NCBI GenBank assembly: GCA_000146045.2
Contig: BK006944.2
Span: 160,001-224,000, forward strand
From: TPA_inf: Saccharomyces
Lineage: Eukaryota
Direction of reading: 5' to 3'
DNA length: 64,000 nucleotides
This document shows, piece after piece, positions 2,487 through 59,967 of this stretch (position 1 is its first letter; the number at the start of each line of letters is the position of its first letter). The position numbers were made by a program, and so were the translations under genes. The notes under the pieces were generated by a model, which was given only the letters and a program-made list of their open reading frames with translations, was not told the DNA's origin and searched no databases.

Positions 2487-2558
2487 CACTCACGATGGGG
2501 GTCGAACCCATAATCTTCTGATTAGAAGTCAGACGCGTTGCCATTACGCCACGCGAGC
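2487..2558 (-). tRNA. tR(UCU)K: tRNA-Arg (anticodon UCU)
   Basis: The reverse complement GCTCGCGTGGCGTAATGGCAACGCGTCTGACTTCTAATCAGAAGATTATGGGTTCGACCCCCATCGTGAGTG folds as a cloverleaf. Acceptor stem, D arm GGCGTAATGGCAACGC, anticodon loop cT-TCT-Aa, T arm ATGGGTTCGACCCCCAT. No intron. Confidence 0.9.
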
Positions 2559-2830: not shown

Positions 2831-3169
2831 TGTTGGAATAAAAATCAACTATCGTCATCAACTAGTGGTTATACTACCAGTATATTATCTTATATGGTGT
2901 CAAATGTGGACATGATGACATAAGGTATGAGAAACTGTCATCGAAGTTAGAGAAAGCTGAAATACAAGGATCAATAATGTAATAGGATAATGAAACATAT
3001 GAAATGGAATGAGGAACAATCGTGATATTATTATGTAGAAATATCGATTCCTTTTTGGGGATGCCTATATCCTCGAGGAGACACTTCCAGTATATTCTGT
3101 ATACATAATATAACAGCCTTTATCAACATTGGAATCCCAACAATTATCTCAAAATTCACCAACCTCTCA
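2831..3169 (+). mobile_element. Solo delta LTR (Ty1/Ty2 family), ~340 bp, ~270 bp upstream (5' side) of tRNA-Arg
   Basis: Begins TGTTGGAATAAAAATCAACTATCG and ends ...TCTCA, the TG...CA termini. Contains the delta hallmarks ...GGATTCC/ATATCCTCGAGGAGA... and ...AATGGAATCCCAACAATTATCTCAAAATTCACC.... No internal Ty coding sequence. The flanking 5-mers are not identical (CCGCG vs TGGCG), so this is an old insertion. Confidence 0.8.
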
Positions 3170-4916: not shown

Positions 4917-5930
4917 TTAACCGAAAAGTTTGGCGAACACTTCACCGACACGGTCATTTAGATCTGTCGTCTGCATTGCACGTCCCTTAGCCTTAAATCC
5001 TAGGCGGGAGCATTCTCGTGTAATTGTGCAGCCTGCGTAGCAACTCAACATAGCGTAGTCTACCCAGTTTTTCAAGGGTTTATCGTTAGAAGATTCTCCC
5101 TTTTCTTCCTGCTCACAAATCTTAAAGTCATACATTGCACGACTAAATGCAAGCATGCATGATATAGCTCCTGTCAAAGTATCACCTTGGCCTCCTACCC
5201 TCTTGTTGCTGCCCTCTTCGCTGTTCGTCAACATGTCTTTTTCACTATCGGGTGAGAATATCTTATCTGACTGACCTTTCTCCACCACAATACAATTCAA
5301 TTCCTGGGCGATCAAGCTGCCCATCTCGGAGTGAGAGTCTCCCTTCTTGCCTATGGCATCACATAGTCTTTTGAATTCTACCACATTGGGCGTCAAGATC
5401 ACTCTACCTTTGGGGTAGCTTTTCAGCATTTCTTTGACTTCGCTATCTTGAGTTACTAAGAACAGTCCATCAGCATCAATTACTAACGGGATCTTGCCCT
5501 CATGTTTTTCAAGTATATATCTTATGATATCCTTAATGGATTTTAACATTAGGGGGTCCCTACCCAAGCCGGGTCCAATTACCACAACGTGGATTCTATC
5601 CAATAAGGAATTGATTTTCTTCCTTTGTTCGTCCATATCAACGTCTAATTTGGTGTTACTCATACGAAGGTATGGATGAACCATTAGGTTTGGGGTGTAC
5701 GATTTAATGACCGTACCAGCGTTGTATTCGCAGATGACATGTGTCAAATCACAGCCCATCAAGGCTGTAGCATTGGCGCTGAAATACGGTGCCCCTGTAT
5801 AATCTTCGCATCCTCCAATAATGCAAACTCTCCCACCAGACTGTCCCTTATGAAACTTTGGCAATAAAGGTGGTATACATCTTTTCTGCGCCAACTTTAT
5901 CAATTCTCTATGAGACAATTCTGCTAACAT
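4917..5930 (-). CDS. NNR2: ATP-dependent NAD(P)HX dehydratase (YjeF C-terminal / carbohydrate-kinase-like domain)
   Basis: 337 aa: MLAELSHRELIKLAQKRCIPPLLPKFHKGQSGGRVCIIGGCEDYTGAPYFSANATALMGCDLTHVICE... Matches YKL151C in length and sequence. Confidence 0.9.
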   Translation of the reverse strand: MLAELSHRELIKLAQKRCIPPLLPKFHKGQSGGRVCIIGGCEDYTGAPYFSANATALMGCDLTHVICEYNAGTVIKSYTPNLMVHPYLRMSNTKLDVDMDEQRKKINSLLDRIHVVVIGPGLGRDPLMLKSIKDIIRYILEKHEGKIPLVIDADGLFLVTQDSEVKEMLKSYPKGRVILTPNVVEFKRLCDAIGKKGDSHSEMGSLIAQELNCIVVEKGQSDKIFSPDSEKDMLTNSEEGSNKRVGGQGDTLTGAISCMLAFSRAMYDFKICEQEEKGESSNDKPLKNWVDYAMLSCYAGCTITRECSRLGFKAKGRAMQTTDLNDRVGEVFAKLFG

Positions 5931-40883: not shown

Positions 40884-41771
40884 TCAGAGCCTGCCGCGAT
40901 CGGCCGTGTTGACTGGTACTTCCACGACGACAGCGACGACTTTACCTGTGTCCAGGTTATAAATTGGAGGATGCTGTAAGTTTCTCAAGACACTTTGAAT
41001 GACACCTGAGTGACAAGTAAGCGAGATGAATTTTTCTTCGCTTGACAATTGATTAAATAGTTCAAATAATCCATTCAGTGTACGTTTGTCCATTTCAGCA
41101 CACGTTTCTCTATGATCAGGAAGCCACAATTCATCATCTTCTGGGTAATCTGGTACATATTGCCAATGTACAGTGTGGCCCGATTCCGTGCTGAAATCCT
41201 GGTATTCGTCAACTGCCATTGAGTGAGCCACTCTTTTGTCACAAGTGTGAGAGCCCAACGTCTCCCTTAGACCTTCTATAATGCGTGTAGAAATTTTAGT
41301 TCCGGCCGGTAATTCTTGCGTCTCCGCTAACACTGGTGTCCACGACTCAATGAATGTTTCGAGACATCTTCTCATTGGAGAACTGAAAAACACATGAGGT
41401 AGCATACCTAATTGCTTTGCCATTGGTAGCAAGACATTCGATCCTGTTCTTCTAACTTGATCTTTACCCAGAGGTGTCAGTTTAGAGTCAAGCCACTCTC
41501 CATGTTCATCGCCCGAAAGCAACGACCAATAGGCGTCCCATTTCTCCATACCGTACCTCAGTATGGCAGCATTGTGGTAACCTTGACCATGCCTAGCTAA
41601 AATCAACAGCTTATAGTGGCGATTTTTGGTATTTCTAGGGATAGCATGATACAGTTCCTTCCAATTCTTATGGTTAATCAATTCTAAGTGATCATATTTC
41701 GTGGAGTCTAATCCTTGAAAACCCTCACTTGGATATGCAGCAAAATATCCTGGGACTGCTCTGAGTGACAT
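40884..41771 (-). CDS. PMU1: Phosphoglycerate-mutase-family phosphatase-like protein
   Basis: 295 aa with a histidine-phosphatase RHGQG motif (LILARHGQGYHN). Matches YKL128C. Confidence 0.9.
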   Translation of the reverse strand: MSLRAVPGYFAAYPSEGFQGLDSTKYDHLELINHKNWKELYHAIPRNTKNRHYKLLILARHGQGYHNAAILRYGMEKWDAYWSLLSGDEHGEWLDSKLTPLGKDQVRRTGSNVLLPMAKQLGMLPHVFFSSPMRRCLETFIESWTPVLAETQELPAGTKISTRIIEGLRETLGSHTCDKRVAHSMAVDEYQDFSTESGHTVHWQYVPDYPEDDELWLPDHRETCAEMDKRTLNGLFELFNQLSSEEKFISLTCHSGVIQSVLRNLQHPPIYNLDTGKVVAVVVEVPVNTADRGRL

Positions 41772-42643
41772 TGTTGAATAACTGTTGGTGATTTCACGCA
41801 GCAGAGTCTTGGAAAGAAATCGTTAAATAACATACAAATCTCTCGAGGGTTTTTTTTTGCAAATGACACTTTTTACTTTTTCCAGTACTAGCTAGCACCC
41901 GAAAAATTAACTTGACTCGCACATGCCTGCTGGGTCATATCCGAATCTGCAAGAAATTAGGATTACAAATATTTATTCAAACGTTGCACAACCACGCAAT
42001 AGAAGATAATATCTGTAAATTTTAATCGCTTTCATCTGAAAACACTGAGCCTCTTCTTAATTTTCACGGACTTTTTCGCAGCCCAGGTTTGACCGGCTAA
42101 GTACGAACCTCTTTTGTTTGGAATAAGAGTTTGGTATTAATCAATTGTTGGTACAAAAGATTAATAGTATTACTTGTGTTTTCAGAATATAATTGTCCGT
42201 GAGCGTCCTAACTGTCATCGAGTTTATAGGAAGCTAATTAGTAAGGACTGACCATGCAAACCCAGCAATGAATGAAAGGATATAAACGAGGGAAGAAATG
42301 GTAGCAGTATTAAGTAAAATTGTCCATTTCCCCTCGTGAAATTATCCAAAACGCGGCAGAAGAACTTTTAAGTTATCTACTGTACATAGTGTTATTGTCC
42401 TCACGTGAATTGAATTGAAACTTTTTCAGAACATTATCGCTGAACTATAAATGAAATTTTGTAATGATTGTTCTGATCCCATCTTACTAAAAGCATTATT
42501 GTGAAGTATAAAATACAATAAATTTCTTCTCAAAAAAACTTGCCGTACATGATATGGAGAAATAGGTGAATTTAGGGATAGTAGTTATTATAATGAGCCT
42601 ATTATAGAGAATCTATTATCGATTTCTAACGGTCGTATCAATC

Positions 42644-42983
42644 TGTTGTATTACGGGCTCGAGTAATACCGGAGTGTCTTGACAATCCTAATATAAACAG
42701 TCTTAGGGAAGTAACCAGTTGTCAAAACAGTTTATCAGATTAATTCACGGAATGTTACTTATCTTATATATTATATAAAATATGAATCATACTAAGTGGT
42801 GGAAGCGCGGAATCTCGGATCTAAACTAATTGTTCAGGCATTTATACTTTGGGTAGTTCAGCTAGGGAAGGTCGGGTTTTGTCTCATGTTGTTCGTTTTG
42901 TTATAAGGTTGTTTCATATGTGTTTTATGAACGTTCAGGGTGACGTATTGTCATACTGACATATCTCATTTTGAGATACAACA
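42644..42983 (-). mobile_element. Solo sigma LTR (Ty3), 340 bp, flanked by a perfect 5-bp target-site duplication CAATC (42639-42643 and 42984-42988)
   Basis: The minus strand reads TGTTGTATCTCAAAATGAGATATGTCAGTATGACAATACGTCACCCTGAACGTTCATAAAACAC...ACTCGAGCCCGTAATACAACA, the canonical sigma sequence with TGTTGTA...TACAACA inverted termini. It ends 15 bp from the mature 5' end of tRNA-Lys. Confidence 0.9.
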
Positions 42984-42998
42984 CAATCACGTTTAAAA

Positions 42999-43071
42999 GC
43001 CTTGTTGGCGCAATCGGTAGCGCGTATGACTCTTAATCATAAGGTTAGGGGTTCGAGCCCCCTACAGGGCT
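42999..43071 (+). tRNA. tK(CUU)K: tRNA-Lys (anticodon CUU)
   Basis: GCCTTGTTGGCGCAATCGGTAGCGCGTATGACTCTTAATCATAAGGTTAGGGGTTCGAGCCCCCTACAGGGCT. Cloverleaf with anticodon loop cT-CTT-Aa. A-box TGGCGCAATCGG and B-box GGTTCGAGCCC Pol III promoters. No intron. Confidence 0.92.
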
Positions 43072-43540
43072 TTCTTTTTAAAACAGGATGCTAAAGCCGA
43101 CACCGTTCAAACACAAGTGGCAGCTTTTCTCGAGAACAGCAATGCCCACAGTTTTATTTACAATTTTACACTATTGACGTGGAGATTTTTTTATCCCGCA
43201 TATGACCTAGTAGAGGATCTCTGTCTTCCCCTGATAAATGTCAAATGTATGACGTTACCACAATTGTATCACGGTGGTTTCAGTCTGTCATGAGGAATAA
43301 GGGCATTCAGTACCGACAATGCTATACTTGTAAATAGAAAAATGATGTTCTAAAATCGGCATTCTCGCTATTTGAGATTTTGTCTTTTTTTACCTGGTAT
43401 TTCGCGTTTATATTACGGATGCAAGAAAAGGAGAAGGGCGCATCACATCGATTTTGGTCTACCTATAAACATTCTCTCTCTCATCCACTTTCGGTTCAAT
43501 AGTGCAAAAATAGGTAACTAACAACTCAATTGAATAGTAA

Positions 43541-45253
43541 ATGTCACTTCTAATAGATTCTGTACCAACAGTTGCTTATAAGGACCAAAAACCGGGTACT
43601 TCAGGTTTACGTAAGAAGACCAAGGTTTTCATGGATGAGCCTCATTATACTGAGAACTTCATTCAAGCAACAATGCAATCTATCCCTAATGGCTCAGAGG
43701 GAACCACTTTAGTTGTTGGAGGAGATGGTCGTTTCTACAACGATGTTATCATGAACAAGATTGCCGCAGTAGGTGCTGCAAACGGTGTCAGAAAGTTAGT
43801 CATTGGTCAAGGCGGTTTACTTTCAACACCAGCTGCTTCTCATATAATTAGAACATACGAGGAAAAGTGTACCGGTGGTGGTATCATATTAACTGCCTCA
43901 CACAACCCAGGCGGTCCAGAGAATGATTTAGGTATCAAGTATAATTTACCTAATGGTGGGCCAGCTCCAGAGAGTGTCACTAACGCTATCTGGGAAGCGT
44001 CTAAAAAATTAACTCACTATAAAATTATAAAGAACTTCCCCAAGTTGAATTTGAACAAGCTTGGTAAAAACCAAAAATATGGCCCATTGTTAGTGGACAT
44101 AATTGATCCTGCCAAAGCATACGTTCAATTTCTGAAGGAAATTTTTGATTTTGACTTAATTAAAAGCTTCTTAGCGAAACAGCGCAAAGACAAAGGGTGG
44201 AAGTTGTTGTTTGACTCCTTAAATGGTATTACAGGACCATATGGTAAGGCTATATTTGTTGATGAATTTGGTTTACCGGCAGAGGAAGTTCTTCAAAATT
44301 GGCACCCTTTACCTGATTTCGGCGGTTTACATCCCGATCCGAATCTAACCTATGCACGAACTCTTGTTGACAGGGTTGACCGCGAAAAAATTGCCTTTGG
44401 AGCAGCCTCCGATGGTGATGGTGATAGGAATATGATTTACGGTTATGGCCCTGCTTTCGTTTCGCCAGGTGATTCTGTTGCCATTATTGCCGAATATGCA
44501 CCCGAAATTCCATACTTCGCCAAACAAGGTATTTATGGCTTGGCACGTTCATTTCCTACATCCTCAGCCATTGATCGTGTTGCAGCAAAAAAGGGATTAA
44601 GATGTTACGAAGTTCCAACCGGCTGGAAATTCTTCTGTGCCTTATTTGATGCTAAAAAGCTATCAATCTGTGGTGAAGAATCCTTCGGTACAGGTTCCAA
44701 TCATATCAGAGAAAAGGACGGTCTATGGGCCATTATTGCTTGGTTAAATATCTTGGCTATCTACCATAGGCGTAACCCTGAAAAGGAAGCTTCGATCAAA
44801 ACTATTCAGGACGAATTTTGGAACGAGTATGGCCGTACTTTCTTCACAAGATACGATTACGAACATATCGAATGCGAGCAGGCCGAAAAAGTTGTAGCTC
44901 TTTTGAGTGAATTTGTATCAAGGCCAAACGTTTGTGGCTCCCACTTCCCAGCTGATGAGTCTTTAACCGTTATCGATTGTGGTGATTTTTCGTATAGAGA
45001 TCTAGATGGCTCCATCTCTGAAAATCAAGGCCTTTTCGTAAAGTTTTCGAATGGGACTAAATTTGTTTTGAGGTTATCCGGCACAGGCAGTTCTGGTGCA
45101 ACAATAAGATTATACGTAGAAAAGTATACTGATAAAAAGGAGAACTATGGCCAAACAGCTGACGTCTTCTTGAAACCCGTCATCAACTCCATTGTAAAAT
45201 TCTTAAGATTTAAAGAAATTTTAGGAACAGACGAACCAACAGTCCGCACATAG
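43541..45253 (+). CDS. PGM1: Phosphoglucomutase (minor isoform)
   Basis: 570 aa with the active-site phosphoserine loop TASHNPGG and metal-binding DGDGDR. Matches YKL127W. Confidence 0.97.
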   Translation: MSLLIDSVPTVAYKDQKPGTSGLRKKTKVFMDEPHYTENFIQATMQSIPNGSEGTTLVVGGDGRFYNDVIMNKIAAVGAANGVRKLVIGQGGLLSTPAASHIIRTYEEKCTGGGIILTASHNPGGPENDLGIKYNLPNGGPAPESVTNAIWEASKKLTHYKIIKNFPKLNLNKLGKNQKYGPLLVDIIDPAKAYVQFLKEIFDFDLIKSFLAKQRKDKGWKLLFDSLNGITGPYGKAIFVDEFGLPAEEVLQNWHPLPDFGGLHPDPNLTYARTLVDRVDREKIAFGAASDGDGDRNMIYGYGPAFVSPGDSVAIIAEYAPEIPYFAKQGIYGLARSFPTSSAIDRVAAKKGLRCYEVPTGWKFFCALFDAKKLSICGEESFGTGSNHIREKDGLWAIIAWLNILAIYHRRNPEKEASIKTIQDEFWNEYGRTFFTRYDYEHIECEQAEKVVALLSEFVSRPNVCGSHFPADESLTVIDCGDFSYRDLDGSISENQGLFVKFSNGTKFVLRLSGTGSSGATIRLYVEKYTDKKENYGQTADVFLKPVINSIVKFLRFKEILGTDEPTVRT

Positions 45254-59894: not shown

Positions 59895-59967
59895 GGGCGT
59901 GTGGCGTAGTCGGTAGCGCGCTCCCTTAGCATGGGAGAGGTCTCCGGTTCGATTCCGGACTCGTCCA
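59895..59967 (+). tRNA. tA(AGC)K: tRNA-Ala (anticodon AGC)
   Basis: GGGCGTGTGGCGTAGTCGGTAGCGCGCTCCCTTAGCATGGGAGAGGTCTCCGGTTCGATTCCGGACTCGTCCA. Identical to the classic yeast tRNA-Ala, with the G3:U70 identity pair, A-box TGGCGTAGTCGG and B-box GGTTCGATTCC. No intron. Confidence 0.93.

Follow-up and report, generated by a model that had tools for sequence, protein, structure and literature searches.

A solo Ty3 sigma element beside a tRNA-Lys(CUU) gene between PMU1 and PGM1 on Saccharomyces cerevisiae chromosome XI

In the Ty3 literature, the canonical length of sigma, the long terminal repeat (LTR) of Ty3, is 340 bp. A distance of 16-17 nt separates Ty3 insertions from the 5' end of tRNA genes (PMC5555480). 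The Ty3 integrase reaches its target through TFIIIB (Brf1/TBP) bound at the tRNA promoter, and TFIIIC (Tfc1) influences the orientation of the insertion (PMC5911963). In the cryo-EM structure of the strand-transfer complex, the joins are made at -6 and -2 from the Pol III start, which gives a 5-bp duplication (PMC8632968), and the dominant strand-transfer site genome-wide is an A/T-rich run followed by C, beside the start-site A (PMC6673722). The accepted origin of solo LTRs is LTR-LTR recombination (PMC7175516). In addition, the sigma promoter is described as hormone-inducible in work referenced by PMC2140177 and PMC7175516, and neighbours of sigma elements have been recovered as pheromone-induced gene fusions (PMC2140177).

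Like sigma, the delta elements of Ty1/Ty2 (Pseudoviridae) occur upstream of tRNA genes as solo LTRs bordered by 5-bp duplications. They differ from sigma in sequence and in their termini (TGTTGGAAT...), and they lie not at the start site but about 90-800 bp upstream, over a region patterned by nucleosomes. Targeting of Ty1/Ty2 takes place via Pol III subunits rather than TFIIIB (PMC5911963).

[quoted passage not shown] The locus is an ordinary, textbook and already annotated feature, and there is nothing new in it as such.

Anatomy of the element and its tRNA gene

The window (the whole 64-kb stretch of DNA that was analysed) is from S. cerevisiae chromosome XI of the S288C type, since the PGM1 and PMU1 proteins encoded on it match exactly, and the sigma element is located in the PMU1-PGM1 intergenic region. 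Farther out, ORFs with a domain search gave a myosin-I gene to the left and an AGC kinase gene to the right. The features of the locus are as follows.

40884..41771, minus strand: PMU1, 295 aa, histidine-phosphatase family (Pfam His_Phos_1), exact match to PMU1_YEAST
42639..42643, unstranded: left TSD copy, CAATC, from direct reading and script; a single pentamer in empty alleles
42644..42983, minus strand (sense): sigma, Ty3 solo LTR of 340 bp, recognised by inverted termini, copies elsewhere and homology to a Ty3-like LTR
42644..42660, minus strand: U5 terminus, sense GAGCCCGTAATACAACA, the integrase-reactive end; 17/17 match to Ty3 LTR-terminus oligonucleotides
42841..42846, minus strand: TATAAA, putative TATA box of the sigma Pol II promoter, from a motif scan (sense positions 138-143)
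42910..42916, minus strand: TGAAACA, pheromone response element consensus, from a motif scan (sense positions 68-74); kept in all aligned copies
42984..42988, unstranded: right TSD copy, CAATC, from direct reading and script; -15 to -11 from the mature tRNA 5' end
42989..42998, plus strand: tRNA 5' leader, 10 bp, with the predicted Pol III start at 42989-42990 (A/C after the final C of the TSD)
42999..43071, plus strand: tRNA-Lys(CUU), 73 nt, no intron (Rfam RF00005, 67.8 bits, model positions 1-71 of 71; ARAGORN)
43072..43079, plus strand: T-run, TTCTTTTT, predicted Pol III terminator, from direct reading
43541..45253, plus strand: PGM1, 570 aa, four Pfam PGM domains, residue-for-residue identical to NP_012795.1 (S. 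cerevisiae S288C)

The ends of the element form a perfect 8-bp terminal inverted repeat, TGTTGTAT...ATACAACA, of the TG...CA type, as determined by direct reading and by script, and TGTTGTAT occurs a single time in the whole 64 kb. The CAATC direct repeat around the element has zero bases of extension on either side; at the same offset of 345, 5-mer repeats were observed at 0.18% of window positions versus 0.13% expected from base composition. A gap of 15 bp (CAATCACGTTTAAAA, 42984-42998) separates sigma from the tRNA, and the last LTR base is therefore at -16 from the mature tRNA 5' end. No second sigma copy was found by sequence search in the 64-kb window, and the flanks are collinear with those of empty alleles, indicating that the element is a solo LTR. 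The first-pass annotation of this DNA, which had reported a 340-bp element with CAATC on both sides and 15 bp to the tRNA, was correct to the base, and the position at -16 is also consistent with its description of a Ty3-type site, the published distance being 16-17 nt.

The tRNA-Lys(CUU) gene is predicted to be a functional nuclear tRNA gene, with a cloverleaf, a CTT anticodon, internal A and B boxes and a T-run downstream. Such T-runs function as Pol III terminators. The span given by ARAGORN for this tRNA-Lys (42998-43072) is one base wider on each side than that of Rfam. An identical 73-nt tRNA is present at the syntenic site upstream of PGM1 in both S. paradoxus and S. eubayanus. The C at the end of CAATC and the A next to it at 42989 fit the published strand-transfer sites, from which we infer that Pol III starts at 42989-42990 and that the leader measures 9-10 nt.

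Filled, empty and engineered alleles

For the allele comparison, contigs encoding the exact PGM1, PMU1 and YPK1-like kinase proteins of the window were used, which gave 17 natural assemblies or samples and one engineered assembly. Logan short-read contigs, which break inside the tRNA or the sigma repeat, were uninformative about the site. The element was present in three of the 17 and absent in 14, a ratio (3:14) that is anchored on S288C protein alleles and is not a population frequency. The filled alleles are those of GCA_947370305.1 and GCA_000977385.2, in which sigma is identical, and GCA_030035895.1, in which sigma is interrupted. Each empty allele carries a single pentamer, CAATC in 13 and CATTC in one, and the 13 read ...GTCGTAT-CAATC-ACGTTTAAAA-tRNA; two CAATC copies were found in none of the empty alleles (0/14). 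PMU1 and PGM1 are 1770 bp apart in the filled alleles and 1425 bp apart in the cleanest of the empty ones, so that the two states differ by 340 + 5 bp. Polymorphism among strains had been anticipated by the first-pass annotation, together with a check on whether strains lacking sigma carry the duplication collapsed to one copy; the former is confirmed by the three filled and 14 empty alleles among other assemblies and samples, and the collapsed state was observed in 14/14.

In the filled alleles, the flanks are 100% identical over 872 + 557 bp, whereas every empty allele is 0.2-2% different, and the empty alleles span several distinct flank haplotypes. Private substitutions of the filled haplotype are located in window 42560-42640 (ATAATGAGCC vs ATAGAGAGCC and CTAACGGTCG vs CTAACCGTCG in the empty alleles). 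Because the filled alleles share identical flanks and an identical sigma while the empty alleles differ, the data point to a single insertion on one haplotype. In one empty allele (GCA_000975675.2, L004:~2395-2435), a 19-bp tandem duplication, CGATCTCTAACCGTCTTAT / CGATCTCTAACCGTCGTAT, was observed directly to the left of the single CAATC.

The sigma of GCA_030035895.1 is interrupted by a Ty1/copia-type element of ~5.9 kb (L041:3472-9370), which is nested after the position equivalent to window 42911, 73 bp from the tRNA-proximal end of sigma and 88 bp upstream of the tRNA. Pfam TYA and RVT_2 domains were found in this element, its LTRs are only 90% alike, its ORFs are fragmented, and its left junction is masked by N.

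In the engineered assembly, CP135974.1 (GCA_032463425.1; L001, L032 and L040; 659,500 bp), a 34-bp loxPsym site, ATAACTTCGTATAATGTACATTATACGAAGTTAT, replaces exactly window 42644-43071. The 428 bp that are lost comprise sigma, the right-hand CAATC, the tRNA leader and the tRNA itself, and the spacing is 394 bp shorter (428 - 34). This assembly is the Sc2.0 synthetic chromosome XI (synXI), in the design of which tRNA genes and LTRs were deleted and the spot was marked with loxPsym (PMC10667340). Since the boundaries of the synXI deletion equal those of the element, sigma had already been annotated with the same boundaries. A literature search with YKLCsigma1 and YKLWsigma1, names that SGD might plausibly use for the window sigma, gave no match.

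The reading that best accounts for these results is a single Ty3 integration at the Pol III initiation site of tRNA-Lys(CUU) on an S288C-type haplotype, with later reduction to a solo sigma, to which we assign a probability of about 0.96. According to this reading, Ty3 would have inserted between PMU1 and PGM1 a single time, on one haplotype of S. cerevisiae chromosome XI, with its integrase tethered upstream of the tRNA gene by TFIIIB (Brf1/TBP) and the orientation affected by TFIIIC. The integrase would have cut the two strands 5 bp from each other, immediately upstream of the start site, and repair of this stagger gave the duplicated CAATC. The internal 4.7 kb and one LTR would later have been lost by recombination between the LTRs, leaving a solo sigma with matching duplications. 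The tRNA gene retains its own internal promoter, 10-bp leader and terminator.

Origin and family of the element

LTR sequences were also found at tRNA-Lys(CUU) in the sister species. In S. paradoxus CP020252.1 (L043:1451-1657, minus strand), a Ty3p-like LTR is 79.7% identical to sigma nt 134-338. It is located at the orthologous tRNA-Lys(CUU) in the same orientation as the window sigma, its left boundary falls at the equivalent flank (..TCGTATATC|TATTGTATTACG), and it differs in being broken by later LTR insertions, being split by a delta-like LTR. On the same contig (L043:2162-2428), an LTR-like element of 267 bp with TGTCACG...CATGACA ends, bordered by a direct repeat of CATAT, lies 16 bp from tRNA-Lys(CUU); it has no similarity to sigma, and 44 nt of it match at 86% near the VIN7 Ty3-like element (L021, about 5802-5845). 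In S. eubayanus (L044:2087-2226, plus strand), a degenerate sigma-like remnant with 70% identity was observed just upstream of tRNA-Lys(CUU). The gene appears to have been hit repeatedly by LTR insertions across species.

The shared orientation and left end of the S. paradoxus LTR would also fit an ancient insertion, in which this LTR and the window sigma are orthologous and the empty alleles arose by precise deletion between the CAATC copies. The LTR identity of 79.7% is no lower than that of the flanking intergenic sequence, and because the flanks are themselves only 72-76% identical, divergence alone is weak evidence against a shared ancient insertion. However, the window copy shares 98-99% identity with the other sigmas of S. 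cerevisiae, unlike a pre-speciation relic, the empty alleles are clean in 14/14 cases, lie on several distinct flank haplotypes and form the majority of the sample, and all filled alleles are on one identical haplotype. On these grounds, it is far more likely that the two species acquired their insertions independently, at a target that is specified with precision, and an ancient shared insertion is very improbable. This is also consistent with Ty3 targeting that is precise to the base, so that independent insertions at the same position are expected (PMC5911963, PMC8632968).

For the conversion of this single insertion to a solo LTR, we infer LTR-LTR recombination of a full-length Ty3, which is the standard conclusion from a matched TSD and collinear flanks. 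A full-length Ty3 at this site was not found in any of the assemblies examined, which would also suit ectopic recombination, gene conversion with another sigma, or aberrant LTR-only integration of cDNA. Ectopic exchange joins unrelated flanks, whereas here the 5-bp duplications match and the flanks are collinear, and recombination within one element is the accepted general route (PMC7175516); an origin of the solo LTR by any of these other routes is about as improbable as an ancient insertion.

To place the element in a family, metagenome contigs were scanned with the first 28 nt of its minus strand, which gave 12 yeast loci. Six of these, from independent yeast contigs, hold full-length sigma copies that are 97.9-99.1% identical to the window copy over the full length. 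Each of the six is next to a different tRNA gene (Ala-AGC, Gln-UUG, His-GUG and one intron-containing tRNA), at 15-16 bp from its mature 5' end, and a truncated copy is located 15 bp from tRNA Ile-AAU. The full copies are found in both orientations, with perfect 5-bp flanking repeats in five of the six. The other retrieved copies are 341 bp long with the same ends; compared with them, the window sigma has an A-run that is 1 bp shorter and 2-3 private substitutions, and otherwise differs in nothing of substance. The contig with a sigma-bearing tRNA-Ala(AGC) (L009) was considered as the tRNA-Ala locus of the window and was rejected, being a different locus. In contig OBMA010001055.1 (L010 / L019), at ~2865, sigma nt 1-78 run straight into sigma nt 95-1 in reverse complement; this palindromic junction appears to be an artefact of assembly at a repeat.

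The closest element bearing gag/pol is a Ty3-like locus of the hybrid VIN7 (L021), the 5' LTR of which is 73-76% identical to the window sigma. The LTR family is tied to Ty3/gypsy because the genes immediately downstream of this homologous LTR, on its own strand, encode Ty3_capsid, Peptidase_A2B and RVT_1 domains. Two contigs of about 5.4-5.6 kb (L013 and L020) were considered as collapsed Ty3 copies and were rejected, since no more than 55 bp of sigma are present in them, beside ordinary genes. A scan of the viral contig collection with the 5' end of sigma gave no match. A large protein database was also searched with a Ty3 RT query, which is ~99% identical to PDB 4OL8/7Q5B; the best match was a "YGR109W-B-like" protein of VIN7 (83%), and canonical Ty3 Gag-Pol was not among the results returned.

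The Ty3 intasome was assembled with the LTR-terminus oligonucleotides GAGCCCGTAATACAACA and GGTGTTGTATTACGGGCTC (PMC8632968). Against these published oligonucleotides, the comparison of the window sigma with Ty3 proper spans the terminal 17 nt only, and all are identical. Degenerate solo LTRs of Ty3p have been reported in S. cerevisiae (PMC5911963, PMC7175516), and with canonical Ty3 compared over this 17-nt end, an assignment to the inactive Ty3p (Ty3_1p) subfamily was considered. The LTRs of Ty3p / Ty3_1p are homologous to the window sigma and share its -16 tRNA targeting, but the two Ty3p-like LTRs compared are only 73-80% identical to it (79.7% for S. paradoxus and 73-76% for VIN7) versus 98-99% for the sigmas; because of this low identity, the element is placed in Ty3 proper. 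In addition, its terminus matches the Ty3 oligonucleotides exactly, its 340-bp structure is intact and not degenerate, and many near-identical copies of it exist, which makes membership in the Ty3p subfamily even less probable than an ancient insertion. The designation as a Ty3 sigma in the first-pass annotation is upheld by the match of the 17-nt terminus and the identity to the six copies. Finally, a chance resemblance of inverted termini and flanking repeat without any mobile element has only the background of roughly 0.1-0.2% of 5-mer matches in its favour and can be dismissed, because alleles that lack the element occur and are shorter by exactly 345 bp (340 + 5), and near-identical copies are present at other tRNA genes.

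Orientation, promoter motifs and neighbouring genes

Sigma has its U3 end (42983) on the tRNA side and its U5 end (42644) on the PMU1 side. Since the VIN7 LTR lies on the same strand as its Ty3 genes, the sense strand of sigma is the minus strand of the window, and the positions of TATAAA and TGAAACA agree with this assignment. Because U3 adjoins the tRNA, sigma and the tRNA are divergent, as had been proposed from the first reading of the sequence and is supported by the strand of the VIN7 LTR, the strand of the motifs and the match of the U5 oligonucleotide. TATAAA is kept in all seven aligned sigma copies. The TGAAACA motif, judged from the pheromone response element consensus, is presumably a Ste12 site.

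The PMU1 ATG is 872 bp from the U5 end of sigma, and the PGM1 ATG is 469 bp downstream of tRNA-Lys(CUU). The TATA box and the pheromone-response motif would drive Pol II transcription leftwards, away from the tRNA, to PMU1. Judged from this arrangement, PMU1, the next gene on the same strand in the direction of the sigma promoter, is more likely than PGM1 to be the Pol II neighbour affected, since that promoter faces away from both the tRNA and PGM1. This corrects the first-pass annotation, which had named PGM1 as the neighbour of interest; PGM1 lies beyond the tRNA gene.

A further proposal, which we regard as speculative and rather unlikely, is that the presence or absence of sigma is a natural cis-regulatory variant, with PMU1 or an upstream ncRNA under pheromone control and the output of tRNA-Lys(CUU) altered by U3, at a tRNA gene that is recurrently targeted. 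If it were true, the sigma of S288C-type strains would place PMU1 or an upstream non-coding transcript under the control of mating pheromone, and the U3 of sigma, in place of everything beyond -16, could change the output of tRNA-Lys(CUU). As a presence/absence marker the site is clean, its empty state having been verified, and it may allow the influence of a solo sigma on the expression of PMU1 and the tRNA to be studied in a natural setting.

Delta-like solo LTRs were also observed at the other tRNA genes of the window.

2831-3160: delta-like solo LTR, about 270 bp upstream of tRNA-Arg(UCU) (2487-2558, minus strand), 81% identical to the delta of contig L041
59414-59704: delta-like solo LTR, about 190 bp upstream of tRNA-Ala(AGC) (59895-59967, plus strand), 75% identical to the delta of contig L041

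An LTR is present upstream of all tRNA genes in the window (3/3).
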